From: Malacoraja senta
Taxonomy: Eukaryota
Assembly (NCBI GenBank): GCA_038087875.1
Contig: CM075988.1
Coordinates: 23,872,001-23,936,000 of the forward strand
Reading direction: 5' to 3'
DNA: 64,000 nt
The position numbers and the translations under genes were made by a program. The notes under the pieces are model-generated. The model had not been told where the DNA came from. It did no database searches and saw only the letters and a program-made list of their open reading frames with translations. Numbering within the stretch: the stretch's first letter is position 1; the number at the start of each line of letters is the position of its first letter. This document shows positions 651-64,000 of this stretch, piece by piece.

Positions 651-2376
651 TCTCTTGTGTCTCTATTGTGGGTTCTGCTTCCAACACTGTTTCTTGCCCG
701 ACATTGATCCATAAGTATTCTCCATTTGAAGATCTCCAGCTCTGTCCTTGCTTTCTATTAGTGGATGCTCTTCATCAGTTCCCAACTTGCCAACCAGACT
801 GTGCAGGAAGGAACTGCAGATGCTGGTTCAAACCGAAGACTGACACAAAAATGCTGGAGAAACTCAGCGGGACGGGCAGCAACTTTGGAGAGAAGGAATG
901 GGTGACGTTTCAGGTCGAGACCCTTCTTCAGACTAGGAAGTCTGACTGTGGTGTTATCCCGAAGACAGATGCAAAATGCTGGAGCAACTCAGCGAGTCAG
1001 GCAGTATCTCTGCAGCCTCACTCTCTGGGCTCAGGGTGGCATGGATTAGAGTGGGAGGGATATTCAGAAAGGCAACAGCTCAAAGCCAAACGTATGTCGC
1101 AGTCAGCTGCCAATCCCTCTGAAACTGCAGTCTGTGGAAGGAACTCATCAACACACACAGAATGCACTGAGAGCAACCATTCAACAAGCAGAATGTTCTG
1201 GAAACTCTTCACTCAGTCCATGGAAAATTGGATAAATAAAACAGCCTTGTGAATTTATCCCCCAGAAGAAATGTTATTCTGTTTGGTTTCCTGACAGTGT
1301 TTGTGTCAAGAAATTGTCAGACAAATCTCTTGATTTTTTTCCTGGTTTGTCCGTTCCTAACTCTCACGGTGGGGTCTAACTCTGTGACCCTGCCAGAACC
1401 TGGTGAGCCACCTAGTGCTGCTCCTGCTACAGTGTGGATAGACACAAAGTGCTCGAGTAACTCAGCGGGGCAGGCAGCATCTCTGGAGAAAAGCAATGGG
1501 TGATGTTTCGGGTCGAGACCCTTCATCAGACTGAGGGAACAGGGAACCTTTACTGAACACACCCGCGGACGTCCACCAGCAAGTCTTCACCTCTTAAAAA
1601 TAGCGGAGTCAGGGGATATGGGGAGAAGGCAGGAACGGGGTACTGATTGGGGATGATCAGCCATGATCACATTGAATGGCGGTGCTGGCTCGAAGGGCCA
1701 AATGGCCTACTCCTGCACCTATTGTCTATTGTCTATTGTCTCACCCAAGCTCCAGGCTCAGCTCCACGCTGCAGGTTTCCCCGCTAAAAGATTCCCTCTC
1801 CCCTGAGGAAGGGTCAGTCTGAGGAAGAATCTCGACCCAAAACATCACATATTCCTTTTCTCGAGAGACTCTGATTTACTCCAGCATTTTGTGTCTGTCT
1901 CCAGGGTCAACCAACATCTGCAGTTCCTCCCTACTCATTTGTCCTACTACAGTGTAACGGACCCATGCTATCATAGGATAGGCTACACCTTAATTAGTAC
2001 AGGTGGCAGGGGTTATGGGGAGAAGGCAGGAGAATGGGGTTAGGATGGAGAGATCAATCAACCATGATTGAATGGTGGAGTAGAATCTAATGGCCTAATT
2101 CTACTCTTAGAACCTATGACCTTATGACCTCCCTTAATGCCTCTTCCCTTCCAAAACACCTTTTCCAGGTAAAGCGGCGATTGACTTGTATTTCTTCCAA
2201 GTTAGTGCACTGTATAAGCTGCTCACAACATGCTCTCCCCACTGGAGAACTCAAACACAGATCGAGCAGCCACTTTACAGACCAATGCAGTTCAGTTGCA
2301 AGTTGCCCATCACTGTAACTGAAGGGTCTCGACGCGAAACGTCACCTTTTCATTTTCTCCTGAGATGCTGCCTGAC

Positions 2377-2550
2377 AGTGTTTAAGAAGGAACTGCAGAT
2401 GCTGGAAAATCGAAGGTAGACAAAAGTGCTGGTGAAACTCAGCGGGTGCAGCAGCATCTATGGAGCGAAGGAAATAGGCAACGTTGCCTATTTCCTTCGC
2501 TCCATAGATGCTGCTGCACCCGCTGAGTTTCTCCAGCACTTTTGTCTACC
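2377..2550. mobile_element. Penelope-derived fold-back (inverted pseudo-LTR) mini-element inserted in an older pLTR copy
   Basis: Palindrome GTAGACAAAAG...CTTTTGTCTAC plus ~35-nt unpaired tail; 12-bp TSD ATGCTGCCTGAC at 2365-2376 and 2551-2562. Confidence 0.85.
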
Positions 2551-2630
2551 ATGCTGCCTGACTTGCTGAGTTACCTCAACATTTTGTGTCTATCTTTACT
2601 ATAAATCTTGAAATCACTCCATTAAACACC

Positions 2631-2664
2631 AGTCTGAAGAAGGGTCTCGACCCGAAACGTCACC
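2631..2664 (+). ncRNA. Minimal type I hammerhead ribozyme motif in a Penelope pLTR (predicted cleavage after C2661)
   Basis: CTGAAGA (2634-2640), extra A, stem II GGGTC/GACCC, GAAA (2654-2657), palindromic ACGT, then GTC triplet; activity not shown. Confidence 0.75.
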
Positions 2665-2870
2665 CATTCCTTCTCTTCAGAGATGCTGCCTGTCCCGCTG
2701 AGTTACTCCAGCATTATGTGTCTATCTTCGGATGAAGCATCTGCAGTTCCTTCCTAACCCTCCCTGACCCCTCTGTCTTTGGCTTCTCACATTGTCCCTT
2801 CAAAGTTCAATGTAAATTGAAGTAACAACATTTGACTTCCAGTGTAAATGAATTACAGTTCTTAGCTGTT

Positions 2871-3053
2871 AAAGAAGGAACTGCAGATGCTGGAAAATCG
2901 AAGGTACACAAAAATACTGGAGAAACTCAGCGGGTGCAGCAGCATCTATGGAGCGAAGGAAATAGGTAACGTTTCGGCCCGAAACGTTACCTATTTCCTT
3001 CGCTCCATAGATGCTGCTGCACCCGCTGAGTTTCTCCAGCATTTTTGTGTACC
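2871..3053. mobile_element. Penelope-derived fold-back mini-element
   Basis: Near-perfect palindrome centred on AACGTTTCGGCCCGAAACGTT; TSD TACAGTTCTTAGCTGTT at 2854-2870 and 3054-3070. Confidence 0.85.
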
Positions 3054-3603
3054 TACAGTTCTTAGCTGTTGCAAATGATTCCTCTTTCTACTTTATATTA
3101 CAATTGGCCATTTCAACCTGTAGCAGTAACTCGACATTTCTCTCTCCACAGATGCTACCTGACCTGCTGGGTATTTGCTGAATTCTCTTTCATTCTCTGT
3201 CCATGCTGCGTTCTGTATCTCACTGTCCAGGCAGATTCTCTTGTCTGTCCTCGTTCATCTCCTCCTGTCCACGGTTTCTCGAGGAAGCTGAGCTGTGATG
3301 AACAAATCAGACACTCCATAATCATTTTTATAATTCAATTTCTTTCGGGTCATCACCCTATCATAGACACCTACATTGCCCTCTCCAACTCGGGACCCCC
3401 CCCATTCCCCTCCCCCATTCCCCTCCCCCCTCCCCTCCCCCCTACCTTCACCGCCCCCCCCCCACCCTCACCGCCCCCCCTTCTCTAGATCTTGAAACAA
3501 GCCAATTTCTTAAATTTCCTAATTCTAATGAAAGGATATCAACCTGAAATGGTAACATTTAGTTTTTCTTCTCCACAGATGCTGCCTGATCTGTTGAGTA
3601 TTC

Positions 3604-4028
3604 TGTACACTCTGGAGTTTAGAAGGATGAGAGGGGATCTCATTGAGACATATAAGATTGTTAAGGGCTTCGACACTCTAGAGGCAGGAAACATGTTCCC
3701 GATGTTGGGGGAGTCCAGATCCAGGAGCCACCGTTTAAGAATAAGGAGTAAGCCATTTAGAACGGAGACGAGGAAACACTTTTTCTCACAGAGAGTGGTG
3801 AGTCTGTGGAATTCTCTGCCTCAGAGGGCGGTGGAGGCAGGTTCTCTGGATGCTTTCAAGAGAGAGCTAGATAGGGCTCTTAAAAATAGCGGGAGTCAGG
3901 GAATATGGGGAGAAGGCAGGAACGGGGTACTGATTGGGGATGATCAGTCATGATCACATTGAGTGGCGGTGCTGGCTCGAAGGGGCGAATGGCCTGTTCC
4001 TGCACCTATTGTCTATTGTCAATTGTAT
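3604..4028 (+). mobile_element. CR1 LINE 3' fragment (young subfamily, CTATTGT tail)
   Basis: Encodes the CR1 ORF2 C-terminus LYTLEFRRMRGDLIETYKI...FFSQRVVSLWNSLP; 3' UTR ends in (CTATTGT)n. Confidence 0.9.
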
Positions 4029-4406
4029 TTCCATCACTTTCTGCTTTTATTTCCTTATCATGTATCTGTACACTGTGAATGGCTCGATTGTAATCATGTG
4101 TAGTCTTTCCGCTGACTGGTTAGCACGCAACAAAAACCTCACTCTGTACCTCGGTACATGTGACAATAAACTAAACTGGACTAAACTGGATTTCCAATAT
4201 GTGCAGTTTCTGTTTTCAGTTTTATCCTGTCAACATACAACAGTGTGACTGACCCTTCTCATCCTAGACAGTGTGACCATGCTGATCTTGCACAGAATGC
4301 TTTCAGTGAGCTGAGCACAAGGGTTGACTTCGAGTTAAAGATTCATAGTGTGGGAACAGGCCCTTCAGCCCAACTTGCCCACACCGTCCAACATGTCTCA
4401 TCATCC

Positions 4407-4735
4407 AAGGTACACAAAAATGCTGGAGAAACTCAGCGGGTGCAGCAGCATCTATGGAGCGAAGGAAATAGGTAACGTTTCGGGCCGAAACCTTGTCGGG
4501 TACGTAGAACAATCCTTGTTAAATGCGTACCAGGGCCCCATCCCCGACCTCTACCTCCGCTACATCGATGATTGTTTTGGTGCCACATCCTGCACCCACA
4601 CACAACTGACTGACTTCATCCGCTTCACCACCAACTTCCATCCGGCACTCAAATACACCTGGACCATTTCCGACACTTCCCTACCATTCCTTGACCTCAC
4701 TATCTCCATCGCAGGTGATAGACTTCTTACCGACA
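4407..4735 (+). mobile_element. 5'-truncated Penelope-like element: inverted pLTR arm joined to a reverse-transcriptase fragment
   Basis: ~4495-4735 translates VGYVEQSLL...YLRYIDDCFG...FTTNFHPALKYTWTISDTSLPFLDLTISI, a Penelope-type RT YIDD region; preceded by an inverted pLTR arm. Confidence 0.85.
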
Positions 4736-5329
4736 AAATAAAATCAAGGTATGTCTCATCATCCATATCCCTCTAAACTTGTCCCACCCCCCCCCCCCCC
4801 CCCGCCAACTTCTATACTCAATGCTCTTACTGACTATAGACACAAAATGCTGGAGTAACTCAGCGGGACAGACAGCATCTTGTGCGAGATGGAATGGAGG
4901 AGGTTTCAGGTCGAGACCCTCCTTCGGGGTAAACCAACATCTACAGTTCCTTCCTAAACACACTCTGACTGACTTGCTATGACTGTGCTGCAATTTAGTG
5001 AAAAAACAAGGAATGACTTAAATTAACAAAGTGCTTTTCATGACCTTAAGCTGCCAGCATGCTTTACAGTGATGGTGGTAATTATTAGTTATTGTGGTAA
5101 TTTTGGATGCTTGGCAAAAGGGTTGGGCACACCAAGCAACAGTGTGATAATCAACAGATAATCAGGTTTTTGGTCTTGTAAATTTGCAGATAAACGTTAG
5201 TTTGGATGCAACAACACCGACATGTATTTACAGAGTTGTGATTATGCAGCAAAATACCCAAGACATTTTCGAGGGAATTTCATCAGACAAATATTTGACA
5301 CTCTTCCATTAAGGAAAATATTGGAGAGG

Positions 5330-5710
5330 GGATCTACCACAGTCGCTGCCTCAAAAAGGCTGCCAGCATCATCAAGGACCCACACCATCCTGGCCACACA
5401 CTCATCTCCCCGCTACCTTCAGGTAGACGGTACATGAGCCTGAAATCTGCAACATCCAGGTTCAGGAACAGTTACTTCCCCACAGCCATCAGACTATTAA
5501 ACTCAACTCCAACAAAACGCTGAACTTTAATAGCCTATTGCACTTTATCTGCTTATTTATGTGTGTGTATATATATATTCAATTGTATATGGACACACTG
5601 ATCTGTTCTGTATTTATTTATGCCTACAATATTCTGTTGTGCTGAAGCAAAGCAAGAATTTCATTGTCCTATCTGGGACACATGACAATAAACTCTCTTG
5701 AACTTGAACT
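5330..5710 (+). mobile_element. Rex1/Babar-type LINE 3' fragment
   Basis: Reads as KKAASIIKDPHHPGHTLISPLPSGRR...FRNSYFPTAIRLLN, the Rex1/Babar ORF2 C-terminus; 3' UTR ends GACAATAAACTCTCTTGAACTTGAACTT. Confidence 0.7.
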
Positions 5711-6784
5711 TGTTATATATCACCAACCAGCCTCTGTCCCAGCCCCACCACCTTGGACTATTTACGTTGTCAATCTTTCCTCTCCCCTCCCAGTTCTGAA
5801 CCTAAACCAGACCAGAATCAAATGAAGACAGAACAATTCATAAGTTACAGGAGCAGATTTAGGCCATTCGGCCCATCAAGTTTACTCTGCCATTCAATCA
5901 TGGCTGATGTAACTTTCCCCTCTCAACCCCATTCTCCCCATAACCCCTGACTCCCATACTAATCAGGAGTCAGTCAATCTCCACATTAAAACTATCCATT
6001 GACTTGGCCTCCACAGCCATCAGTGGCAATGAATTCCACAGATTCACCACTCATTGACCAAAGAAATTCCTCCTCATCTCCTTTCTAAAAGTATGTCCTT
6101 TTAATCTGAGGCTATGATATCTGGTCCTAGACTCTCCCACTAGTGGAAAAATAAAACATGATGTTAACAGGTGCTGAGAACATAAGGTGCAAAATTGGAA
6201 ATAACACAGACATCCTGGAGTGTTGTAGATTAGATTAGATTAGATTTTATTCTTGTCATTTGAACCTCAAAGAGGCTCAAACGAAACTCCGTTTCCACAG
6301 CCATACAAACAAAATAATTCAGTTGTATGACTGAAGGAGACGGCAAAGGGAAAACGGTGGGGGAATTAGGAGGTTAAATCTGAGGTAGTGACTTACTCAA
6401 GACCAGTGTGAGTTGACAAGCTGGGTCAAGAGAGTCAAGAGTGTTTTATTGTCATATGTCCCAGATAGAACAATGAAATTCTTACTTGCAGCAGCACAAC
6501 AGAATATGTAAGAAGGAACTGCAGATGCTGGTTTAAACAGAAGATAGACACAAAAAAGCTGGAATAACTCAGCGGGACAGGCAGCATCTCTGGAGAGAAG
6601 GAATGGGTGATGTCTGAAGATGGGCCTTGACCCAAAACGTCACCCATTCCTTCTCTCCAGAGATGCTACCTGTCCCGCTGAGTTGCTCCAGCACTTTGTG
6701 TCTATCTTCAGAATATGTGAACATAGTACACAGTAAAAAATATAATAAATGAGAAAAAAAAGTTCAATGTGTGTATCCATACTC

Positions 6785-7005
<221 letters not shown>

Positions 7006-7429
7006 CGAAAGGTTATTCTGATTCAGCTTGAGACAATTGCCAGGAATACTGATGCATTCCCGATCCGAAAAGTCACCTATCCATGTTCTCCAGAGATGGA
7101 CACAAAATGCTGGAGTAACTCAGCGGGACAGGCAGCATCTCTGAAGAGAAGGAATCTGTGACGTTTCAGGTCGAAACCTTCTCCAGAGATGCTGCCTGAC
7201 CCGCTGAGTGATTCCCGCACTTTGTGTCCTCTTGTGTTAACCAGCATCTGCAATTCCTTCTTTCTACGTACTGATGCAGTTTGTGACAAGGTGAAGGATT
7301 TTTGAATGGGAACACAGGTTAATGGCCTGGTCCTTCCAATATTTAGTTGGAGGAAGTTTAAAATGTTTATCACGGATTATTTTACATTCACCGACTTGCA
7401 TGGTGATGGCCTCGGTTTAATGTTGTAAC

Positions 7430-7810
7430 CGACGGGGGTCACCTCGCAAATGGGGCTCGTCAGCCTGGGAAGGCAGTCCATCTAGGAGAGGGAAAACTCT
7501 GATTTAAAACCCCCACTGCCTTGTGGCCGTATCCAGTCATGGAAAAGGCTCCTGGAGTAAACCTCAAGAAAATCCGGAGTCGGAGCCCCTAAGGCAGTTC
7601 GTCGTTGTCTACAACCTCGCTCTGGCAGCTCCTGCGACGGCGCTGGTGCCAAACTGTAACGGCCCTGCTGTTCCTTTGGATCGATCAGCGACGTGGAGAG
7701 TGGGGGACGTGCTGCATGGACAACAGCCTGTCCTCCATATGACATCGCCCAGGCTTGCATCCGACCAGGATGCATCACCCATGGTCAGTCATGACCAAGG
7801 GGGGCCTACT
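7430..7810 (+). mobile_element. Probable RTE-clade 5'-region-derived repeat
   Basis: Contains GGCAGTCCATCTAGGAGAGGGAAAACTCTGATTTAAAACC, resembling RTE (BovB/Expander-like) 5' regions from memory; CpG-rich relative to flanks. Confidence 0.45.
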
Positions 7811-8158
7811 CTTTTGCTAAACTGTCCAAGGTGTGTTTTATTGTCATGTGTCTCAGATAGAACAATGAAATTCTTACTTGCTGCAGCACAACAGAACATA
7901 TAAGCATAGTACACTGCAAACAATATTATAAAGAAGGGGGGAAAAGTTCAGAGTGTGTGTAATATGGACACACATACTGTGGCATTTTTTTCACGTTTTA
8001 ATTTAATTTTAATTTAAAGTTTGCATGTACCTTGTTGCGTGCTGTGACTGATGGCAGAACAATTTCCCTCCGGGGATGAATAAAGTTCTGTCGTATCGTA
8101 TTTGTGCTTTGTATTCGTATTTGTATTTGTGCTCCGAAGCCTAGACTTGCTAAGGCAG

Positions 8159-8283
8159 GTAGACAAAAGTGCTGGAGAAACTCAGCGGGTGCAGCAGCAT
8201 CTACGATGCTGCTGCACCCGCTGAGTTTCTCCAGCACTTTTGTCTACCTTCGATTTTCCAGCATCTGCAGTTCCTTCTTAAAC
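8159..8283. mobile_element. Short Penelope-derived fold-back element just upstream of the CpG island
   Basis: Palindrome centred near 8203; 14-bp TSD ACTTGCTAAGGCAG at 8145-8158 and 8284-8297. Confidence 0.85.
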
Positions 8284-8657
8284 ACTTGCTAAGGCAGTGC
8301 AGGGGAATTTCATTGAGTGAGAGGAGAATGTCTTCTCGCTGTGCCTGTGCTGAGTGTGTCTGTGCAGCCGAGTGTGAATGCCAGGCTCTGTGTGTGTGTG
8401 TGTGTGTGTGGCTACGCTCGGTTGCTGGAGTGGCCACAGCAATGCGGTGTGTGTGTGTGTGTGTTGAGCTTGTGTTGTAGTGAGCGCCGTGCCCAGTGTT
8501 GTGGGGCTGTGCTGAGCCCTGGTGCCGCTTGGAGCTGCTGTGAGAGGGAGCAGCGAGGACTCTTATTGTGACACGGCGGCTCCCTCAGCCCCCTTCCTCG
8601 CTCATCCATACTCGCTGCCGTTTGACAACAACAGACTAAGCAGCGGCGCCGAGCAGC

Positions 8658-8698
<41 letters not shown>

Positions 8699-8847
8699 AG
8701 AGAAGAGGGTGATCCAGAGCTGCCCTCGGGAAGGTTCGGGTTAAGGATTGTCCCCGGGGGGTTGGCTGAGGTCGGGGGCGGCGGGAGGAGCAGGGACGCC
8801 GCCGCCGCCGCCGCCGCCGAGTTGTGGCCGAGCCCGGGGCCCCGGTC

Positions 8848-8923
8848 ATGGGCCACGGGAGGAGGAGGAGGCCGAGGCCGCGCACAGCGAGCAACATGAG
8901 GCGGCTCGCCAGCGGCGCCCCAG
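8848..8923 (+). CDS. Candidate coding part of exon 1 of an unidentified gene (MGHGRRRRPRPRTASNMRRLASGAP, phase 1); may instead be 5' UTR or a uORF
   Basis: In-frame ATGs at 8848 and 8896 (AACATG, purine at -3) run open to donor CAG|GTACGT at 8923/8924; second possible donor CAG|GTGAGG at 8945/8946. Confidence 0.4.
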
Positions 8924-8974
8924 GTACGTGCGTGTGGTGGGACAGGTGAGGGCGGGCAGGCGGGCGGGCGGGCG

Positions 8975-9097
8975 GGCGGCAACATTGTAGCGCTGGGGCC
9001 GGGCGGCAACATTGTATCGGTGGGGACGGGCGGCAACATTGTATCGGTGGGGACGGGCGGCAACGCTGAGCCGCCGGAGCCGGCAACATTGTATCGG
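8975..9097 (+). repeat. 27-bp GC-rich minisatellite (~4.5 copies)
   Basis: GGCGGCAACATTGTATCGGTGGGGACG-type units starting at 8975, 9002, 9029, 9056 and ~9081. Confidence 0.9.
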
Positions 9098-9449
9098 CGC
9101 CGACCGCCGGCCCTCCCGTTACTTTGTTGCCGTCTTGTTAACCCTTTGTCTCCCGCCTGCCTGGATGGATGGATGGAGGGGGAGCCCCGTGTGTGTGTGA
9201 GCGGGTTGTGCCGCCGCCAGTAACGACCCCCATCCCACATCCCCATCCCCTCACCTCACGGCTACTGTTCATTTAATTAGCTATTGAAGGCAACAAAGAG
9301 ACAAAAAAAAAGATATATATATATATATAGAGAGATAATATGTACTGTGTGTAACTGGGAGCCGGGAGCGGGCCCGGCCGAGCATCATCGGTTCCCGGTC
9401 TGGGGAGAGTTAGCGGCGGATAGGAGGGAGGGAGAGGAGGGGGGGGGAA

Positions 9450-9580
9450 AGAGTGATTGACGCGGGATCAGCCAATAGGCGGCGGGTGAATGCAGTCGGG
9501 CCGCGGGGGAGGCCAATGGGAGCTGGGAGGGGGCGGGAGTTGTGGGTGGGGGGGAGGGGGCGGGAGTTGTAGTCCGGCGC
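9450..9580. promoter_or_regulatory. Second core-promoter motif cluster: CCAAT boxes, GC boxes, ZNF143/THAP11-type motif
   Basis: CCAAT at 9471 and 9513; GGGGCGGGAG twice; GGGAGTTGTAGTC (9562-9574) is the reverse complement of GACTACAACTCCC. Confidence 0.65.
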
Positions 9581-9848
9581 CCCGTCTGGGGGGGGGGGGG
9601 CTGTCCGTCTCCCTCCTCCCGTGGAGAGATGAGGGATGGATTGGGGGAGGGGGGGTGTAAATTCTCTCCCCCCAACCACACACACACCTTCCCCTGGCCA
9701 CTGGAGGAGTGGAGGTTGTGAGTCATGGGTAGGTGAGTGTTGTGAGGGCTCCCTCCCTCTCCTCACACAATCCATCCATCCATCCATCCATCCATCCACC
9801 CATGTGGTGAGTGAGGTGCAACCTCCTCCAGCTGTGCAGGTAGACTCC

Positions 9849-10048
9849 NNNNNNNNNNNNNNNNNNNNNNNNNNNNNNNNNNNNNNNNNNNNNNNNNNNN
9901 NNNNNNNNNNNNNNNNNNNNNNNNNNNNNNNNNNNNNNNNNNNNNNNNNNNNNNNNNNNNNNNNNNNNNNNNNNNNNNNNNNNNNNNNNNNNNNNNNNNN
10001 NNNNNNNNNNNNNNNNNNNNNNNNNNNNNNNNNNNNNNNNNNNNNNNN
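9849..10048. other. Assembly gap (200 N)
   Basis: Run of N of round length; true size unknown. Confidence 0.99.
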
Positions 10049-11968
10049 TTCGACATCTTTTCTTTGTAGAAATGCTGGACATTGTTGTATTTTCTCAAGT
10101 TCAGATATTAGATTTAGGGGGGTGGTGTGATTCTACTGCGATGTTGAAATAATCAAAGCATTTGATGGGGTAAACGGAGCAATTATGTTCTCTGGTGGTG
10201 GAATCCGTAATTAATACATCAGGGGCACAGAAGCCTACTGCAGGTGGTGGAATCTGGAGCAGAAAACAAACTGCTGGAGGAACACAGCAGGCCAGGACTA
10301 TTCGGAAATGAAATTGGGAAGCACTTCTTTTCACAAAAGCAATTCTGGAATTGTGTCTTCCAGAAGACTGGATGTCTGGCCCCAAAGCCCCGAATTCTCT
10401 CCCTAGTCTTTCTTGCTCTTTGCTTCCCCCTCCTCTCCCTCCCCCCCCCTCCCCCACTCTACTTACTCCTTTCTCCTCTCCCCCATCCCGTCTCTCCCTC
10501 TGATGTGTTCTATTAAGAAGCCCGTTCACTAACTAGGTGGTCACAAAATGCTGGAGTAACTCAGCGGGTCAGGCCTTTTCTCCAGAGATGCTGCCTGACC
10601 CGCTGAGTTACTCCAGTATTTTATGTCTATCTTCGGTGCAAACCAGCATCTGCAGTTCCTTCCTACACCATTCATTGAGTAAGTGTTCCTTCTGTTCTAA
10701 CATCTACTTGTAGATCCAGTGCCACGTTTTCTCGGGTAGTATTCCGACAAAAAGGCCTGGGGATATTTTACGACGTCTAAGGCTATATGTAAATACAATT
10801 TGTATTGATCGGAACCAAGTTGTAATGCTGAGTTGTTAGTTTGGAGATAGTTGGCAGTTGCTGGTAGAAATCTAAGCAAAGGCAATCAAAAGTTTTTGGA
10901 ACTTTATGGAATTAAAATGAAGTGTGTTCCATTGTTGTTGGTGTGATTATGCAGTTATTCTGCCCACAATATGTCAACTGTGCCGTAGTTTGCGAACTGT
11001 TGCTTCATTTGTGATCGCGATATAATCTCTAACTTGTGGGGAGAAACCGCGCAGTTTCTCTCCACCTCGCACCCTGCTCTGTCCCATGTGTGAATGATAT
11101 TTATTTGCTGCTCTGCAGATGTTGCGAACATGCTGTAATGTTGGTTTCATGGCAATGATTCCTCCCTGGGGTGTCCTCCTCCTGTCACATTCCACATGCC
11201 CCTTGGGTACAGTCCCCGACTGCTTCCCAAAGTCGGAACCAAGAGGATGTGCTTCATCTGTGAAGCTAACAAGCGGGTTTTGACGTTCACAAGTTCTAGC
11301 AGCATAATTAGGCCATTCGGCCCCTCAATTCTACTCCACCACTCAAATCATGGCTAGACACAAAATGCTGGAGTAACTCAGCGGGACAGGCAGCATCTCT
11401 GGAGAGAAGGAATGGGTGACGTTTCGTGGTCGAGACCCTTCTCTTCCTTCTTCGTCTGAAGGGTCTCGACCCGAAACGTCACCCATTCCTTCTCTCCAGA
11501 GATGCTGCCAGTCCCACTGAGTTACTCCAGCTTTTTGTGTCTATCTTCCATTAAACCAGCATCTGCAGTTCCTTCCTACACACTCAATCTATATTTCCCT
11601 CTCAACCCCACTCTCCTGCCATCTCACAACCCCTGACATTATTCCACTGTGAGAGGTAGACAAAAATGCTGGAGTAACTCAGGCGGGTGAGGCAGCATCT
11701 ATGGAGCGAAGGAATAGGTGACGTTTCGGGTCAAGACCCTTCTTCAGACTGAAGGTGTAATTTGTACACATGCGCCTGGAATAGACTTCTCTGAATTGGA
11801 CCAATATTCTTGCCCTAGATACCAGAATGAAGACATTTAGTAGAAACAAGGACCAGCCATTCGCCCCAGTCATTGGCCAGTATCTAGAGGCGAGTGCCCA
11901 CATGGTAATCAGTTACATTATCCCCAGCTGACTTTCCCCGACGGGAAATTGTACCTTTCCAACCCTGT

Positions 11969-12164: not shown

Positions 12165-12251
12165 TACCTTTCCAACCCTGTCAGTAAGGATGTTTGATGT
12201 CAGTAAGAATGAATAAAGCCAATATTATAGGTATGTTTAATGCTTAATTAA

Positions 12252-12515: not shown

Positions 12516-12529
12516 ACCAGAGCCAACGC

Positions 12530-52681: not shown

Positions 52682-52715
52682 AGTCTGAAGAAGGGCCTCG
52701 ACCCGAAACGTCACT
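52682..52715 (+). ncRNA. Minimal hammerhead ribozyme motif with 3-bp stem I (AGT/ACT)
   Basis: AGT-CTGAAGA-A-GGG CCTCGA CCC-GAAA-CG-TC-ACT. Confidence 0.7.
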
Positions 52716-54415: not shown

Positions 54416-55878
54416 TGCCTGTGTCACTGCTTCCATGGGACTATGTACTGTTCTCGTTCAGCTGGCAGTACTTCTACCACCCTCTCTACTGCCCTTTTAT
54501 TCTGAGGCTGTGCCCTCTTGTCCTAGACTCTCCCTCGTGTGGAAGCATCTTGCCACATCCGCTCTATCCAGACCTATTTGGTAAGTTTCAACAAGGTCCT
54601 CCTTCAGAAGAGTGAGAGTCTGGGACCAGAGGCCGCAGCCTCAGTATTAACGGACGCACCTTTATAAAGGAAATGAGGAGGAATATCTTTAGTCGCAGGG
54701 CGATGAATCTGTGCAATTCATCGCCACAGAAAGCTGTGGAGGCCAAGTCAATGGATATTTTTACGGCGTAGATTGCTTAGACAATAGACAATAGGTGCAG
54801 GAGTAGGCCATTCGGCCCTTCGAGCCAGCACCGCCATTCAAAATGATCATGGCTGATCATCCCCAATCAGTACCCCGTTCCTGCCTTCTCCCCATATCCC
54901 CTATTTTTAAGAGCCCTATCTAGCTCTCTCTTGAAAGCTTAGTACGGGTGTCGGGGGTTATGGGGAGAAGGCAGGAGAATGGGGTTTGGAGGGAAAGCTG
55001 GATCTGTCACGAATGAATGGCGGAGTAGACTTGGTGGGCCGACTGGCCTAATTCTGCTCCTATAACCTATGAACTAAATTACAGGGATTCCAGGCTCAGT
55101 GCTGTCAAATGCTCCATGCATGTATTGTTGCATGCACTTGTAGTGAGTATCACAGGGTGGAGAGGTGAATTCATGAAACCATTCTGGCCCTTGTCTTGTG
55201 TATCCGTACACGGCTCATTTGTAATCATGTATTGTCTTTCTGCTGACTGGTTAGCACGCAACAAAAGCTTTTCACCAACCTGGCAATAAACTAAAATAAC
55301 AACTTAACTGAACCGAACTGAATTCATGCTGCTGGAACCCTTTATCTTAAACCAGTAAAAAAGTGCAACATTCTAGGAAGCTTGTATCTGCGGAGAGGGT
55401 GACAAGGGGTTAATGGGTGACCATTGCTATTTTTTACTCTGCAGAAGCAATTGCAGCAATTTTCGAGTTTTATTTCAGTCTTGCAGTGTTTCTCATTTTG
55501 AACGTCCCCTGCAGCTCAGTGCCCACCGCAAGCCCGCCGTGTAATTAGACATCAGTCCCGGGACTCGGGAGATGCTGCAAGTTGGATGTGTTGATACCAT
55601 TGAAACCCCTTCTGGCCATCCAGAGCCGGACGTTCGTTTCAGAGATATTAACTCTCCTCTTTATTGGCCTGTGAGAGTCCCTTCCGCAAATCCACGCACC
55701 TCCAGGGGTAGAGAGGGATGGTTCGGAGCCTTTAAGTTAATGAAGCTGGAGTTTCAGAGAGAGAGAGAGAGAGGGAGAGGGAGAGAGAGAGAGACACAGA
55801 GAGAGACACAGAGAGAGAGGGAGAGAGACTGTGAGTTTGTGCGGTAGCAGCCTTGGTCTGGCAGGGCGGCCAGCCATC

Positions 55879-55915
55879 ATGTTGGCCAGTCGGCTGCACA
55901 GTCGGGGAGCCAGCG
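55879..55915 (+). CDS. Candidate coding part of an alternative first exon (MLASRLHSRGAS, phase 1)
   Basis: GCCATCATG context, open to donor GCG|GTGAGC at 55915/55916; preceded by a (GA)n tract and CpG-richer unique DNA, as at exon 1. Confidence 0.35.
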
Positions 55916-56812
55916 GTGAGCCTGGTTCGGCACAGGCGGTGAGGGAAGCAGGAAGGCTGATCACACCACGGCTATTTTGGGAGTCTGTGCTAGCTGTGGA
56001 ATGTGCTGCTGATGTCATTTACTACAGCAAGAATGGAACAGATGGTGTGGGGTGAAGAGCAGACAGGACTGGGACCAACTGGGTGGATTTAACTCCTTCC
56101 ATTTCAGTCTGCATCAGATGCGTATGTCTGTGATCTGCCTACCGCTTACTGCCTATTTAATGCAACAGCTAACCATGGCCTCTTTCCTTTCTCAAGGTTA
56201 CTTTTATGTATATCTTCCATTTGTTTCTTCTATCTCTCAATATCACCGTCCATATCTCTAATTTTCCCTCTCCCCTGAAACATATAAGATTGTTAAGGGT
56301 TTGGACACGCTAGAGGCAGGAAACATGTTCCCGATGTTGGGGGGAGTCCAGAACCAGGGGCCACAGTTTAAGAATAAGGAGTAAGCCATTTAGAACGGAG
56401 ACGAGGAAACACTTTTTCTCACAGAGAGTGGTGAGTCTGTGGAATTCTCTGCCTCAGAGGGCGGTGGAGGCAGGTTCTCTGGATGCTTTCAAGAGAGAGC
56501 TAGATAGGGCTCTTAAAAATAGCGGAGTCAGGGGATATGGGGAGAAGGCAGGAACGGGTACTGATTGGGGATGGTCAGCCATGATCACATTGAATGGCGG
56601 TGCTGGCTCGAAGGGCCAAATGGCCTACTCCTGCACCTATTGTCTATTGTCTATTGACTATTGACTCTTCTTCTTGCGTACGGCGTGCACAGCCTAAAGT
56701 TGTAGGACAACTTGTTCTATTTGATCTTATTTGATTGTGCACGCCGGGTTGATTGCATTCGTCGAAACAGGGGCGGACCACGTGAAGGTTGCAATCTCCC
56801 AGCCTGACCTTC

Positions 56813-56846
56813 GGTCTGAAGAAGGGTGTCGACCCGAAACGTCACC
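56813..56846 (+). ncRNA. Minimal hammerhead ribozyme motif with stem I GGT/ACC
   Basis: GGT-CTGAAGA-A-GGGT GTCG ACCC-GAAA-CG-TC-ACC. Confidence 0.7.
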
Positions 56847-58179
56847 TATTCCCCCTCCCCAGAGATGCTGCCGCCTGATCCGCGGAGTTACTCCCGCTTT
56901 TTTGTGTCTAAAATATCTCGCTTCTGCATTTCTCCTTGTGCTTGGGATAAATGTCCCAAGGTGCTTCACGGAAGTGCTGTTAAATAAACGTTGACACGGA
57001 GGAGGAAGTAAGGTGCACGGTGACGTAACATGTATTTTAATGAAAGACGGCGTTATTCAGTGAAGCAATCCCAGAGCTGCTGAAGGCACAGCCACAGTTA
57101 GTGGAGCCTGCCCCCGAAGACATTGGGGATGTGCGCGAAGGCAGAATTGCCTCTGGGAGGGCTGGTTGATGGACAAGATTAGGAAGTGCAAGGCTACGGA
57201 AGGGTCTGATGTCAAAAGAAGGAACACTTTAGTGCTGAGCCTGTCTGAACAGTAGGCGAAGCCAGAAAAATGTATAGGCCTTTTGCACTTTGACCCTTCC
57301 ACGCACTGACACTCCCACCCTGGAAACTTGAACACATATTTGAGGCTGTTACCCGCTGAATATTATTTATGGAATGCTGCCATCAGGAGGAAGTCACAGG
57401 TGCGTGAGCGCCATTGCCTCAAGGTTCAAGAACTGCTTCTTCCCATCAAACACCACGTTCTCGGTCCAAACCCTAACCTCAAACCATTTGAACCGCGCGG
57501 GATTCTCCACTACTCTGATTGCTCCAAGCACTTCAGTTTTTCATTGGTTCATAAGTCATAGGAGCAGAATTAGGCCATTCAGCCCATCGAGTCTCAGTCA
57601 TAGCTGATCTATTTTTCACTCTCAACCCCATTCCCCCGCCTTCTGCCCATAACCAATCAAGTATTTGTCAATCTCTACCTTAAAAAGCAGCCATTGACTT
57701 GGCCTCCACAGCCGTCTGTGGCAATGAGTTCCACAAGTCAAGTCACTTTTATTTCTATAGCACATTTAAAAAACAACTCTCGTTGGCCAAAGTGCTTCAC
57801 ATTGGTGGAGATACTAACGTTATACAACAGTGGTTCATAGATTAGGTACATACATAAATACATACATATAGCCCTCCCTCAGAGGACCACAGGTTCACCA
57901 CAGGTTTTTGCATCACTTTGGTCTGGTTCACTTGGCGAAACTGGCCATTTATTGTACATTTTATTGTTGTTGCATCTAATATGCCCGTAAACCTGCAGCA
58001 GGTAAGAATTTTATTGTTCCCAGAAAAATCACTCCGCAGATCAGCGGGCATGGATTCACGATGAGGTGGAAGATATGTAGAGGGGATACAAGAGAGACCA
58101 TCTCACCTTCCCACCCTAAGAGTGGCCAGTACGTGGAACGCACGGCCTGTGAGAGAGTGTGGTGGAAGCTAGGGATAAC

Positions 58180-58546
58180 AGACAATAGACAATAGGTGCA
58201 GGAGTAGGCCATTCGGCCCTTTGAGCCAGCACCGCCATTCAATGTGATTATGGCTGATCATCCCCAATCAGTACCCCGTTCCTGCCTTCTCCCCATATCC
58301 CCTGACTCCGCTATTTTTAAGAGCCCTATCTAGCTCTCTCTTGAAAGCATCCAGAGAACCTGCCTCCACCGCCCTCTGAGGCAGAGAATTCCACAGACTC
58401 ACCACTCTCTGTGAGAAAAAGTGTTTCCTCGTCTCCGTTCTAAATGGCTTACTCCTTATTCTTAAGCTGTGGCCCTGGTTCTGGACTCCCCCAACATCGG
58501 GAACATGTTTCCTGCCTCTAGCGTGCCCAAACCCTTAACAATCTTC
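58180..58546 (-). mobile_element. CR1 LINE 3' fragment
   Basis: Reverse complement of the young CR1 3' end; AGACAATAGACAAT tail. Confidence 0.9.
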
Positions 58547-59322
58547 TGAAGATGTGAATCCATGAGGCAGGGAAGGCAATGGACCAAGTGCTGCGAGACA
58601 GGTTTAATACTGAAGGCTGCTCTCTGGTCAATGTGAACGGTTTGAGTTAGAGTCCTAGAGTGCTGCAGTGTGGAAACAGGCCCTTCGCCCAACTTGTACA
58701 AGGCCGATCGGGATGCCCCTGCCAACCTAGTCCATTTAAGCTGGAAAGAGTGTAGAGAGAGGATGTGGCCAGGACTGGCCATTTCCTACGAAACCTTTCC
58801 CATTCATGTACTGTTTAAGAAGGAACTGCAGATGCTGGAACAATCGAAGGTAGACAAAAATGCTGGAGAAACTCAGCGGGTGAGGCAGCTTCTATGGAGC
58901 GAAGGAATAGGTGACGTCGCCTATTCCTTCGCTCCATAGATGCTTTCCGGGTCTCGACCCGAAACATCACCTATTCCTTCGCTCCATAGATGCTGCCTCA
59001 CCCGCTGAGTTTCTCCAGCATTTTTGTCCACCATCAATGCGCCAATCTGTTAAATGTTGTTATTAGTACTGGTGCTGACTCGAAGGGCCGAATGGCCTAC
59101 TCCTGCACCTATTGTCTACCTGTCTCATTTACTTCATCTGGCGACACGTTCCAGACACCCACCACCGTCTGAAAAAGTTGCCGCTCTGGTTCCTGTTCAA
59201 TCTTTCCCCTCCCACCTTAAACCTGTGGCCTCCAGTCCTTCCTCCTCCTACCTGTCTCCTCTCGTGTTATTATACACCCCTGTAAGATCACCCTCCCAGC
59301 CTCCTGCACTGCAAGAGATTAA

Positions 59323-59646
59323 AATCCCTGTCCCAACGGTGCGAGTTCATTCCAAGAGCTCTCCCGAGTTAAAAAAAAAAATCAAACTGGTGGTAAGCAC
59401 GGAGAATGAACGTAGCGGGTACGTCGGAGCTCGGGGACGTCTCTTAGCGCTAACGGCAGGTACTCGGGAAGACTTGCTAACGGTAGGTAAGCACGGGAAG
59501 ACTCGTGAAGATTTTTCATACATGTTGAAAAATGTCCACGAGAGCCCCGAGTACCGACGAGTGGCCATTACCGTAAATCTCCGAGTTCGAATCAGGGCAA
59601 ACTCGGGAGAGCTCTTGGAATGAACTCGTACCGTGGGACAGGGGTT
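59323..59646. mobile_element. PIF/Harbinger-type MITE, full length
   Basis: TIRs AATCCCTGTCCCA / TGGGACAGGGGTT, TAA TSD on both sides. Confidence 0.85.
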
Positions 59647-59734
59647 TAAGTCCGAGCCTGCTCAACCTCCCCCTCCAGCTCAGCTTCTTGAGTCCTGGCA
59701 ACGTCCTCTCAAATCCCCTCGACACTTTCCAGCT

Positions 59735-59925
59735 TAATATCCTTCTTCCGGAAGCACTTTGATGAGACGACATTGACGAAATCTTTTGCGTGCCTTGAGG
59801 TGCCTGCTATTGGTGACCAGAAGCCTGTTGGAGAGAAGAATCGTTGCTTCCCTGTAGACCAGGAGTTTTGTCCTGGGTCTGAGGTCTTGATGTTTAAATG
59901 CTGTTTTCGTCAAACAGCCATCCAT
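59735..59925 (-). mobile_element. Degenerate RTE-clade LINE ORF fragment
   Basis: AFKHQDLRPRTKLLVYREA...RHLKARKRFRQCRLIKVL resembles the RTE post-RT segment. Confidence 0.55.
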
Positions 59926-60035
59926 GAATGCCCAGCTTTGCAGTGATCATCGCTCTTCAACATTATCTGCTTGGCTTAAATCATTCTGGGACATCCTGGG
60001 TTTACTGTGCAAGGGATTTGTCATACACTGCCTCA

Positions 60036-60368
60036 AGGACCTGTCCCACTGTCCCGAGTTATTCACAAATTCTCCCGAGTTTTTTAAACTCGCAGAATGT
60101 TCGTTACGAGTCCGTAGGAGTCCGTGGATATATCGTAGCGGCTCGTTATGCCAGCCGTGGGAACTCGGGGCATCAGGTAATTCGGGACGTTTTTTCCAGC
60201 CCGATGAAAAATGTCCACGAGTTTAAAAAAATAGCCCCGGGTATCCACGGCTGGCAAAACGAGCCGCTACGATATATCCACGGACTCCTACGGACTCGTT
60301 ACGAACATTCTGCGAGTTTGTAAACTTGGGAGAATTCGTGAATAACTCAGGAAAGTGGGACAGGCCCT
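60036..60368. mobile_element. Harbinger-type MITE with long inverted arms (partial copy at ~27148-27330)
   Basis: TIR AGGACCTGTCCCACT / AGTGGGACAGGCCCT; inverted homology extends ~120 bp inward. Confidence 0.8.
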
Positions 60369-62377
60369 TTAGACTGAACCTTCGCCCAATGTCTAAATGT
60401 TGCTGTTTGGTTTATTATTCCTGGGTCTAATATCTTGCCATCAGGTTTAGAATTGCTACATCGTGAGTGTCTGTCTCGGTTTGATTTACTGAACTTGACA
60501 TCGATGTCTGGCTCTTGGGGTTTCATTTACAAAACTTGGTCCTAGTCTCTAACGTTTAGGCTTTAGTTTATCGTGCTTGTATCCACCGTCTAACTCGGTT
60601 TGGCTGGATGCAATTGAGTCCAGCGTCAGACTGTAGGGGCTTGTTTGATTTATTATATCTACAGCCAAGGTAAGTTTGAGTAATGTATTATTGAATGCCC
60701 TATCCAAGGCGCTGTCTATGTCTCTCTATGGCATTGCCTCTCGGATCTCACCTCATGTTAAACCTCAATTCTGCCAGTCCCTTCGAATAACTTGGGCACT
60801 CTGCTGTGACTGTCCACACTGCTCCTCCTGCAACTCTACCGCTGCGCCACCCACAGCCACAGGTGATGCAGGGTGATGAGTCTAGGGAGGGTGCGGTGGG
60901 TGGAAGTATAGAGAAGATGAGCAAAGGGCACGTGAATGGGGATGCAAGAGACTGGCGAGAATGAGGAAGTAACACTGAGATGCTATTGTCACGTGTACCA
61001 AGGTACAGTGAAAAGCCTCAAGGGCCTGTCCCACTTAGGCGAATTTTTAGGCGACTGCCGGCGACAGTCACAGTCGTAGCGGGACGCCGAAATGGACACA
61101 CCCTACGACAAGCTACGAAGGTAGACAAAATTGCTGGAGAGACTCAGCGGGTGCAGCAGCATCTAAGGAGCGAAGGAAATAGGCAACGTTTCGTGGCCGA
61201 AACCCTTCTTCAGCCTCAAACCCCAAACGTTGCCTATTTCCTTCGCTCCATAGATGCTGCCGCACCCGCTGAGTTTCTCCAGCACTTTTGTCTACCTTCG
61301 ATTTTCCAGCATCTGCAGTTCCTTCTTGAACGGTAATATAATGGAACAGTTAAAGATGAGGTGGAAGGTAGACACAAAATGCTGCAGTAACTCAGCGGGA
61401 CAGGCAGCATCGCCCATTCCTTCTCTCCAGAGATGCTGCCTGTCCCGCTGAGTTACCTTCGGGGTCTCGACCCGAAACGTCCCCCATTTCCTTCTCCCCA
61501 GAGATGCTGCCTGTCCCGCCGAGTTACTCCAGCATTTTGTGTCTACCTTTGATTTCAACCGGCATCTGCAGTTCTTTCTTGCACAAAAGATGAGGGTAGA
61601 CTAGACACGGAGAACAATTTCCACATCCAAAATGGTACTGTGGAATCCACACGGTCAGTTTCTGTGCTGCTGGGATCCAAAAACAAGAACAAGCTTAATA
61701 CCTGTGTAGGAAGGAACTGCAGATGCTGCTTTATACCGAAGATAGACACAAAGTGCTGGTGCAACTCGGCGGGTAGCATCTCTGGAGAGAAAGGATGGAT
61801 GACGTTTTGGGTCGGAACCCTTCTTCAGACTGAAAGTAGGTGGGCCGGGAGGTGGGGGAGTAGAAGGCGGGAGGTAGGAAAAGTAGAGTGGGGGGGGGGG
61901 GTGTGTGAATTGGAGGTAGGAAAGATTTTCTGAGTATGGGCAAGATATGAGTATATGTCTCCCGTTCTCTTCCCCTCCCCACTCTACTCTCAGTCTGAAG
62001 TTCGAAACCGAAACCTTTTTTCTCCAGAGATGCCGCCTTGACCCACTGAGTTACTGCGGTGCTTCGTGCCTATCTCCAGTTAGCTTTAATATGTATTTTA
62101 GGAGGTGGTTGTAAAATATCGGTGCGTTTTCTTTCGGGGGGCCTTCAAGGATTTTATTCTCGATCTAGCGCTGAATCCAGAGCTGATGTTCTGGCTGCTG
62201 GATGGGACATGGGAATAACGGGCTTTGAGATGCACGGCAAGCGGTTGTGAAGGGGCAAGTCTCGGAGCCCGAAGCCGATATTGCGCCTCGCAAATCATTG
62301 ATGATCACATTGATCAGTGTTACTTGAGTTCCAAATCTTTTTGTCTTTCAAATTAACAACCTGGGTCTGGCAAAGGA

Positions 62378-62750
62378 AGTCAAGTCAAGTCAAGTCACTT
62401 TTATTTCTATAGCACAGTTAAAAAACAACTCTCGTTGACCAAAGTGCTTCACATTGGTGGAGATACTAATGTTATACAACAGTGGTTCATGGATTAAGTA
62501 CATACATGAATACATACATATAGCCCTCCCTCAGAGGACGTCAAGAAAGGCTTGAGAGTAAAGATGAGTTTTTAGTCTCGACTTAGAGTCGATGGAGGGG
62601 GAAGTTCTGATGGGAAGAGGGATGCTGTTCCACAGTCTAGGAGCTGCACCGGCAAAGGCGCAGTCGCCCCTGAGCTTATGCCTAGACCGCGGGATGTTCA
62701 GTAACCCCAAGTCGGCCGATCTGAGGGACCTGGAGGTGGTGTGGTGGGTG
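62378..62750 (-). mobile_element. L2-clade LINE 3' fragment (shorter copy at ~57735-57887)
   Basis: RSLRSADLGLLNIPR...GDCAFAGAAPRLWNSIPLPIR...KSRLKTHLY; (CTTGA)n tail. Confidence 0.8.
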
Positions 62751-63369
62751 AGCAGGTTCAGGAACAGCTTCTTCCCTGCGGCTGTTAACACTACTGAACT
62801 CTGCACCTCGGTGATAGCCAGTCACCCCCCTCCCGGACACTCCTTCCCCCTGAAAAATTGCACTACTGATACTGCTGTACATATATATATTTTACTGCTC
62901 ATTATTCCTAAGTTCGCTCTTCTGGGTGAGATGCTAACTACATTTCGTTGTCTCTGTACTGTACACTGCACAATGACAATTCAAGATTGAATTGAATTGA
63001 ATTGAATTGAATTTTGACTTTTGAGGAAAATGGGTATACGTTGGTGTCAGGACGGTGAGATGTTGAGGCCACAGATGAATTGCTAACGCCAGGCAGCTAG
63101 CTGGCTCTCTTTAGCTTCACACTCACACACTGGAGTCTCTGGGAGCAGAGAATAGCACTCAAATCAGTCACATCAGGTAACGCAAAATTAATGAGCTGCT
63201 GTTTGCAAAACTCCGGGGCCTTGGTAATAGCTGTTTAGCACCTCCTGCCTGTTATGCCATCGATCGGAATGCCTCTGCTCTCCCTCCAAGCAGATCTTTA
63301 TCTAATTGGGCCCTGGTGTGATTCTGAAGGGGCACACACTCCTACGAAGAAAGGGAGGCTGAGAACAGA

Positions 63370-64000
63370 CCAGGTAGACATTGTTTCGCTGAACACCTTC
63401 ACTCGGTCCCCAGATCTCCCGGTTGCTGGACACTTTAATTCCCCCTGTTTAAGAAGGAACTGCAGATGCTGGAAAATCGAAGGTAGACAAAAGTGCTGGA
63501 GAAACTCAGCGGGTGCAGCAGCATCTATGGAGCGAAGGAAATAGGCAACGTTTCGGCCCGAAACCCTTCCGGGTTTCGTCCCGAAACGTTGCCTATTTCC
63601 TTCAGGGTTTCGTCCCGAAACGTTGCCTATTTCCTTCGCTCCATAGATGCTGCTGCACCCGCTGAGTTTTCTCCAGCATTTTTATCTCAGTTTAATTCCC
63701 CTTCCCATTCCCACACTGACCTATCTGTCCTGGGCCTCCTCCATTGTCAGAATGAGGCCACATGTAAACTGGAGGAACAGCACCTCATATTTCACTTGGG
63801 CAGCTTACAGCCCAGTGGTATGAATATTGATTTTTCCAACTTTAAGTAACGCCTGCATTCCCTCCCTCTCCATCCCTCCCTACCCAAGTCGCACCAGCTT
63901 TCATTCCGACCTAGCTACGGCTAACAAACCCCTTTTCCTATATCACCGTTACCTTTTTGCATATCTTTCATTCATTTGTTCTATATCTCTCTCTCTACAT
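63370..64000 (+). mobile_element. Penelope endonuclease C-terminal fragment interrupted by a fold-back element (63445-63690)
   Basis: PDLPVAGHFNSP | SHSHTDLSVLGLLHC...KLEEQHLIFHLGSLQPSGMNIDFSNFK; TSD TTTAATTCCCC at 63434-63444 and 63691-63701. Confidence 0.85.

Follow-up and report, generated by a model that had tools for sequence, protein, structure and literature searches.

Penelope pieces in the window and in the genome

The stretch of Malacoraja senta DNA analysed here (GenBank assembly GCA_038087875.1, contig CM075988.1, positions 23,872,001–23,936,000 of the forward strand), which we refer to as the window, is 64,000 nucleotides (nt) long and is crowded with short pieces of the pseudo-long terminal repeats (pLTRs) of Penelope-like elements (PLEs), some of which carry a hammerhead ribozyme motif (Table 1). 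An initial annotation, made from the sequence alone, had taken these for dozens of copies of a retrozyme-like unit of about 110–190 nt. We call each aligned pLTR piece an arm and number its positions from the C of the hammerhead CUGA (position 1), with cleavage predicted after position 28. Arms were called by BLAST with ten natural copies as queries, both in the window and in a genome sample of 120 evenly spaced 10-kb stretches (1.2 Mb, or 1.26 Mb with the window) taken from the 1.94-Gb genome. Individual genomic loci used for comparison have L-numbers and chromosomes have C-numbers.

The window holds 91 arms and the genome sample 482, from which we extrapolate a total of about 780,000 arms per genome. 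The lengths differ from those of the initial annotation: arms are mostly 45–135 nt long (median 98), with 36 of the 573 exceeding 250 nt. More than half of the window arms (54/91) form 27 head-to-head inverted pairs, which had been missed, and the other 37 are singles, with 9,237 bp occupied in all; the window and sample together contain 123 head-to-head pairs and 327 singles. We note that the window, whose distance to the end of C12 is 4 Mb, has an arm density of 142 per 100 kb, compared with 34–59 in the genome samples, with young family-B arms about ten times denser.

The parent Penelope-like element

A reverse transcriptase (RT) fragment at 4492–4734 of the window matched numerous copies in the genome that are nearly identical and have long open frames; twenty of these were taken for comparison. 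The copy at L021 has one open reading frame (ORF) of 1,249 amino acids (aa) with matches to RVT_1 (aa 733–902, E 2e-6) and GIY-YIG (aa 1153–1186, E 0.0015), both below the Pfam cut-offs, together with YIDD and YIGET motifs and a CX4CX2C linker between the RT and endonuclease at aa 1116. Such a linker suggests placement in the Neptune (or Nematis) clade, a CX2-5CXXC linker being the criterion for Neptune and common to Nematis (PMC8557442). The ORF is long for its class and includes a long proline-rich, internally repeated stretch N-terminal to the RT (aa 250–520). Direct pLTRs derived from partial tandems are found at L021, L023 and L032, and those of L021 are 96% identical to positions 17876–18066 of the window, where, as the initial annotation had noticed, the unit terminates a Penelope endonuclease fragment (17556–17810, matching aa 1163–1247 of the intact ORF by tblastn). 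The hammerhead starts about 116 nt downstream of the L021 stop codon, and in tandem copies the ORF begins about 35 nt past the tail. Insertions have the one-end-only tail of 30–40 bp, the inverted 5' copy and the target-site duplication of endonuclease-containing (EN+) PLEs. An older family, family A, combines an endonuclease and 3' untranslated region (UTR) of its own with the pLTR also present in family B (30 loci); the UTRs of the two families diverge upstream of CAGT and align from CAGT onward.

The outer ends of the 482 sample arms are bimodal, falling at about 93–96 in tail-less (S) arms and about 128–132 in tailed (L) arms, some 35 nt apart. Kb-long copies share these two end sites, and kb-scale inverted pairs (among them L035, L038 and L039) have one of each, and because of this the short pieces are the short end of a continuum with the kb-long copies. 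In the window the architecture of the short pairs is also seen on a longer copy, at 4403–4734.

A conserved hammerhead that most pieces have lost

A hammerhead-like motif is present at all twelve places cited for it (one starts at 11747 rather than 11746), and a strict pattern has 20 matches in the window. That this is the minimal type I hammerhead of PLE pLTRs was borne out by a descriptor combining CUGANGA, GAAA, UH, the extra nucleotide, G10.1–C11.1 and a palindromic stem III, which gave 11 matches in the window (0 in 30 of 30 shuffles) and 34 in the genome sample (0 in 5 of 5 shuffles). The genome-wide count that had been called for returned 13,276 and 11,606 occurrences of the two commonest exact 31-mers, with none for a reversed-pattern control. 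Stem II, originally given as GGG(N6)CCC, is better taken as a 4-bp helix capped by a YUCG tetraloop, and the 2 bp of stem I (helix I) are short of the 4–5 bp of PLE minimal type I hammerheads. Such hammerheads reportedly cleave as dimers, in work by Lünse in 2017.

Core conservation, one of the two things named in advance as able together to overturn the ribozyme reading, went in its favour: none of 11 core positions varies among four large subfamily clusters (237 of 254 arms, two small and noisy clusters of 17 arms being left out), compared with 17 of 64 downstream positions (Fisher p 0.046). H17 is C or U, and changes at positions 17 and 29 preserve pairing. A covariance search, also proposed at the outset, gave no Rfam hammerhead match at gathering score over the whole window and none up to E 10 over 17800–18100, and folding of five natural stretches gave z-scores of −0.9 to 0.4 and no hammerhead fold; a canonical hammerhead with a 6-bp helix I and loop contacts is not seen. 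It should also be noted that most pieces lack a complete motif, which is kept by only 11 of the 91 window arms (12%) and 34 of the 482 sample arms (7%).

Inner ends gather upstream of the hammerhead and not at its predicted cleavage site

The end hazard per nt is 0.067 at −6 to +3 and 0.005 at 27 to 33 (246 arms), and only 4 of these 246 arms have inner starts at 27–31, so that unit boundaries do not coincide with the predicted cleavage site. The same pattern is seen in 128 singles, whose inner ends also lie just upstream of CUGA rather than at the cleavage site, and among the 45 singles displayed for inspection target duplications often adjoin the arm start. Genome-wide, the 11,606 family-B cores fall to 7,780 when 3 extra upstream bases are required and to 3,063 with 8, yet those 8 bases are present in 39 of 41 long copies. 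We considered whether the 5' peak might come from references without upstream sequence and rejected this, as the upstream flanks are mostly unrelated (a high-scoring partner was found for 10 of 114) and the genome-wide family-B counts drop alike.

The inner ends at −7 to +3 likely mark the 5' end of the RNA, at TCAGT, a reading drawn from DNA ends alone. We take TCAGT to fit the initiator consensus. The internal promoter of Penelope is located in the pLTR (PMC2377424). Contigs from four sequencing runs of other organisms, presumed to be RNA, show loose ends at these same positions, the 5' ones partly owing to subfamily differences, and as contigs do not reveal RNA ends they were given no weight. 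The hammerhead would be carried along in these copies without setting their ends.

At L021:7700-8000 (minus strand) the hammerhead is directly preceded by a pyrimidine tract and an acceptor-like CAG, and the ORF start has a donor-like site; in D. virilis, helix I marks the end of an intron (PMC4209133). Splicing from the ORF-start donor was rejected as a cause of the 5' boundary, as the joined form has 9 matches genome-wide, none with the donor exon, and several copies have no host exon between the duplication and the element; the rejection covers that donor only.

These ends bear directly on the protein-free, retrozyme-like mobile unit of the initial annotation, in which a pLTR unit would be transcribed, self-cleaved as a dimer, circularised and reinserted by the Penelope protein. 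An intact minimal hammerhead conserved in tens of thousands of copies, and the derivation of animal retrozymes from pLTRs (10.64898/2026.07.22.740005), are what such a unit would lead one to expect; an end peak at the cleavage site is missing, however, and the pieces are 3' ends of autonomous families whose lengths grade into kb-long, ORF-bearing copies. Complete-hammerhead tandem arrays were not found among 84 relaxed core matches in 1.26 Mb, which include six same-strand neighbours within 1 kb, although rare arrays elsewhere are possible, and 80 of the 91 window arms are without the full motif. In pair transcripts the core is predicted to be base-paired, and hence buried, within hairpins of about −150 to −190 kcal/mol, while in the monomer the predicted probability of stem I is about 0 and the hammerhead fold costs 5–11 kcal/mol. 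We regard a retrozyme-like element as very improbable here. Recurrence as a unit is confined to a minority of sequences, fold-back centres from which the CUGA core is gone, and these are described below.

Head-to-head pairs mostly combine one long and one short arm

The 123 head-to-head pairs comprise 89 L+S, 14 S+S and 5 L+L pairs plus 15 with an unclassed arm, so that one long and one short arm are combined in 89 of the 108 classed pairs where 50% would be expected (p 2e-12). Target-site duplications of at least 8 nt, their lengths peaking at 13–15 nt, flank 49 of 122 pairs and, among the 44 young ones, 25, compared with 4 of 500 mismatched flanks. Most junctions are unique, and many are asymmetric with either arm the longer. 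Partner arms in 48 family-B pairs agree in subfamily variants in 35 of 40 cases (20 expected) and 33 of 36 cases (24 expected), while their private changes are mostly unshared (7 shared, 50 unshared). Because subfamily variants are shared and private changes are not, the two arms of a pair would have come from one source and then decayed separately, and the unshared private changes also led us to reject wholesale conversion from arm to arm.

Fold-backs of this kind could also arise by self-priming on an antisense template, which has been proposed for rotifer Penelopes (PMC3846280), or by hairpin fold-back of one complementary DNA (cDNA), with the endonuclease trimming the second end. Either route would account for the subfamily variants common to both arms and for the several junctions at the motif's own perfect palindromic points (ACGT, the centre of stem II and TCAG-T-CTGA), but less readily for the many asymmetric junctions in which the longer arm may be on either side. 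In 13 of the 89 L+S pairs the tailed arm stops at 64–100; in seven of these the stop, at 83–97, is next to the short start site, as expected if two polymerases collided; both outer ends moreover match the two classes of start site known in vitro. We therefore think either route unlikely as the source of these pairs.

Proposed origin of the pieces

We propose that the units are probably short pLTR end-pieces of autonomous Penelope-like elements, likely produced when the RT primes at two internal start sites and copies the first 95–130 nt. The endonuclease would nick both target strands about 14 nt apart, after which one cDNA would be started from the distal site (giving the tailed arm) and the other from the proximal site (the tail-less arm), with RNA from one source serving both. 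Short homologies would then allow these cDNAs to be joined head-to-head, often at the palindromes of the hammerhead itself, and cDNAs that ran on would halt at −7 to +3 by runoff at the likely RNA 5' end. Priming at the pLTR–ORF junction on an RNA starting in that pLTR would give products of 95–130 nt only, because the RT needs RNA downstream of the tail and such RNA would be present only at that junction. In vitro, a Penelope protein cuts and extends both strands, the tail is bounded by two start sites, hammerhead cleavage is unneeded, and the RT requires RNA downstream of the tail (PMC11167929); twin priming from the two start sites is what we infer from the present data. As the ends miss the predicted cut site, the fold-back stumps are likely aborted insertions and not a self-cutting RNA element.

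Several observations weigh against this proposal. An RT stall, whether in the pyrimidine tract or on reaching the palindrome TCAG-T-CTGA, would resemble runoff, and the start site shows no strand difference in vitro (PMC11167929), so that arms of one long and one short type are not predicted by that system by itself. No duplication of at least 8 nt was found at 73 of the 122 pairs. Arm ends are the limits of BLAST alignments and are blurred by a few nt, with some references having no upstream sequence, and the hazard comparison accordingly covers the 246 of 573 arms with at least 85% identity whose references do have it. Tiny second arms might be hidden in the 203 of 327 singles that were passed over in the close inspection given to the 45 displayed singles and the window loci. 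Finally, the hammerhead probably matters at some step of the autonomous element, and is probably maintained in the autonomous lineage, because its core is invariant across subfamilies.

Fold-back centres shared between neighbouring loci

Most junctions in the unbiased sample are unique, and the sharing of centres concerns a minority of loci. Five window loci carry shared centres without the hammerhead, three of a type we call P34 and two of a type we call P50. P34 consists of a 34-nt duplication with an asymmetric CCC-GGAA-GGG junction and no CUGA core, and is found in the window fold-backs at 38, 39 and 63 kb. Its 20-nt junction has 2,246 copies in the genome, many of them within a composite repeat. 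The stand-alone form, counted with an exact 64-mer, has 89 copies, most of which are close to chromosome ends and on small chromosomes. The 70 copies we examined included 21 that shared sequence beyond the called end and were set aside (one true flank duplicate, 18 carriers of a module described below and two others), leaving 49. A target duplication of its own of at least 10 nt is present at 30 of 39 classed P34 loci (6 of 300 in the control). The tail is on the left in 18 of the 49 copies and on the right in 17, which we rejected as proof of twin priming because tail side is not diagnostic: a centre can flip in the palindrome or convert in either direction.

The centre variant is the same in 93% of 59 pairs of neighbours (<1.5 Mb apart) compared with 41% of 722 cross-chromosome pairs (0 of 2,000 permutations), whereas the outer-arm variant is shared by 42% and 41% and the tail side by 42% and 48% of these pairs, respectively. 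Centre variants occur with all three outer variants, so that the centre is not linked to the ends, and private centre variants mark neighbourhoods 0.2–4 Mb wide (L260/261, L291–295 and L296–298). Shared centres thus travel locally and separately from the outer ends.

A second shared sequence, module M, combines P34 with one further fold-back in 200 nt and sits inside 19 single Penelope ends with 5' limits from +36 to beyond −400 (L249, L265-L275, L278-L280, L282-L284 and L299). Flanks match over at least 10 nt in 11 of the 19 (two doubtful) compared with 10 of 100 controls. The module junction has 32 exact copies, 23 of which are in two regions, of C16 and C17, and several upstream haplotypes that also occur in ordinary copies are represented among the nine long carriers. 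P50, based on a 50-nt duplication, has 19 exact matches, at chromosome ends and on unplaced contigs.

We lean slightly towards local ectopic conversion between fold-backs as the origin of the shared centres. In this second process some centres would be copied between nearby insertions after these had been made, most likely by ectopic gene conversion, a palindrome or pLTR being broken and then repaired from a neighbour. A rather unlikely alternative is copying at integration, either as true non-autonomous palindromes from a few masters inserting near their source or through new cDNAs that switch template onto a nearby transcript. The distinct target duplications of the P34 loci are what this would produce, as is the tail on either side if twin priming acted on palindromic RNA, but it does not explain why neighbours share the centre variant and not the outer variant, nor why centre and outer variants are unlinked. 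None of the 89 stand-alone P34 copies is on C1 or C2, which make up 30% of the genome (p 9e-15), although over the first 15 Mb of C1 the density of ordinary family-B cores is average. The presence of module M on several haplotypes of ordinary copies speaks for conversion, but its carriers have varied 5' truncations and differ by 1.9% upstream compared with 3.2% in the background, and this partly favours a few source copies instead. That assembly or polishing pasted one centre into many hairpins, which are generally hard to sequence, is quite improbable given that private centre variants mark neighbourhoods, that unit number ranges from 2 to 7 and that copies carry their own mutations.

Taking these results together, it is possible, and we suggest it tentatively, that two RT start sites used together, one per target strand, leave strong-stop-like fold-backs, and that these host a protein-free "centre drive" in which centres and the 200-nt module spread by local conversion, at chromosome ends and on small chromosomes, without a ribozyme.

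Three further observations concern these centres. In the composite repeat the P34 centre is surrounded by 66-nt pLTR units from an older subfamily, which are antisense, arranged in tandem and lack the 5' half of the hammerhead (L191-L205, L207, L208, L213, L216 and L219); its junction has 1,385 exact copies, which are strongly clustered and dense at C2:86.6-90.5 Mb. The 50-nt P50 unit has expanded to short tandem arrays, none with a CUGA core, at L310-L314 and L316. In the window, local segments at 37850-38270, 39700-40125 and 35902-36032 are duplicated and inverted and have flanks in common around P34 fold-backs, which suggests rearrangement at the P34 palindromes.

Other features of the window

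The window also contains many long interspersed element (LINE) 3'-end fragments, which we take to be CR1-like, at 16828-17499, 31145-31693, 38582-38980 and 47942-48989, and a 7-nt minisatellite of 92 copies at 50868-51508. One 27-nt two-copy repeat occurs at both 33015-33072 and 59449-59503 and is likely part of another interspersed element.

Table 1. Penelope-derived features of the window (TSD, target-site duplication).
Positions	Strand	Feature	Details
406..63683		All 91 window arms	27 pairs and 37 singles; 9,237 bp
17557..18065	+	5'-truncated family-B Penelope	Frameshifted GIY-YIG C-terminus, stop 17817-17819, 3' UTR containing a pyrimidine tract, hammerhead starting at 17936, complete tail
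17936..17965	+	Minimal type I hammerhead motif (descriptor)	CUGAAGA, extra A, 4-bp stem II/UUCG loop, GAAA, palindromic ACGU stem III, 2-bp stem I; predicted cut after 17963
4403..4734	−/+	Inverted tail-less arm fused directly to Penelope RT fragment	Arm 4403-4492 (−); RT 4492-4734 (+), YIDD
46149..46599	+	Family-A Penelope endonuclease end, 3' UTR	pLTR deleted
63691..63843	+	Penelope endonuclease C-terminal fragment	
2867..3054	−/+	Pair, tailed minus arm and tail-less plus arm	17-nt TSD; stem II junction
8157..8285		Pair without hammerhead	Arms begin at positions 48 and 50; 14-nt TSD
11966..12170		Pair, tailed and tail-less arm	TSD 14–17 nt
32466..32617		Pair	Tailed arm halts at 83 beside short start site; tail-less arm reaches −3; 15-nt duplication
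46002..46156		Head-to-head pair without hammerhead	14-nt duplication
49814..50071		Pair with hammerhead in both arms	Predicted 80%-paired hairpin burying core; 15-nt duplication
38019..38227		P34 fold-back	
39710..39929		Second P34 fold-back	Flank in common with 38-kb locus
63446..63683		Third P34 fold-back	Own TSD; outer-arm variant unlike 38/39-kb copies
24983..25247		P50 fold-back	50-nt duplication
58812..59038		Fold-back with P50 duplication junction	Flanks unlike 25-kb locus
2628..2756	+	Single tailed arm, family A	Start −5; intact hammerhead
47105..47237	−	Single tailed arm	12-nt target duplication adjoins 5' end at about −2
15147..15250	−	Single tail-less arm	Start −1; duplication at least 13 nt

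Significance and comparison with known systems

The integration of Penelope-like elements and the role of their hammerhead are open questions (PMC8557442, PMC11167929), and the 780,000 or so insertion ends in this genome can be read as a record of the integration reaction. Read in this way, they point to a template that is not defined by the ribozyme, to the use of the two start sites within a single event and to a probable site for the beginning of the RNA; ribozyme cleavage, the start of transcription and gene conversion are themselves predicted here from sequence. If centre spreading is true, it would be a simple selfish DNA moving by repair between transposon remnants as well as a marker of ectopic recombination sites. 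The main value of the analysis is in the evidence from ends on how Penelope integrates and in the centres that appear to spread locally. As a whole the pattern has been described before, with pLTR hammerhead, truncation, inversion and tail already in print, while we found no account of the inner-end peak, the one-long-one-short statistic or centre spreading among Penelope fold-backs in the openly accessible literature (Repbase and Dfam being outside this scope).

Published EN+ PLE insertions have an inverted pLTR and a 30–40 bp tail on one end (Arkhipova 2013, PMC3846280; Craig 2021, PMC8557442), and those described here resemble them in 5' truncation, the inverted 5' copy, the one-end tail, target-site duplications and junction palindromes. 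They differ in being reduced to 100–260 bp and in their number, and the one-long-one-short rule and inner-end peak have been quantified. Dispersed single and opposite-strand minimal hammerheads have already been ascribed to truncated PLEs (PMC4209133), and ours share with these the core, the extra nucleotide after A9, G10.1–C11.1, the palindromic stem III and the predominance of single motifs with some opposite-strand pairs, with a 2-bp helix I as in the D. virilis variant. Unlike in the available parts of that paper, which contain no end mapping, the ends of copies were mapped here and lie away from the cleavage site.

A close parallel is with Poseidon of Anolis, PAc (Frangieh 2024, PMC11167929), for which two RT start sites bounding the tail, cutting and extension of both strands and a dispensable hammerhead cleavage were all seen in vitro, whereas here they are read from DNA ends. 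The elements are not the same, however, as the ORF begins inside the hammerhead in PAc and about 35 nt past the tail here, where the linker points elsewhere, to Neptune (or Nematis). Animal non-LTR retrozymes occur as tandem repeats arranged head to tail, with a hammerhead in every unit, and are expressed as circles (Cervera 2020, PMC7229834; Li 2026, bioRxiv 10.64898/2026.07.22.740005); the pieces in this genome are likewise non-coding, pLTR-related and associated with a type I hammerhead, but are scattered as single arms and head-to-head pairs, most of which have no intact hammerhead. Without this distinction, such stumps would be wrongly counted as retrozymes in motif scans.

In LINE-1 twin priming both target strands are said to prime, giving an inversion flanked by a duplication. 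The fold-backs share the inversion and the flanking duplication, and differ in that both primers would copy one stretch, starting from two fixed sites with 35 nt between them, and would thereby produce a fold-back. Through non-allelic gene conversion, variants spread between transposon copies that are already inserted; unlike in this ordinary conversion, what would spread here is a whole asymmetric centre or a 200-nt module, with a geography on the Mb scale.

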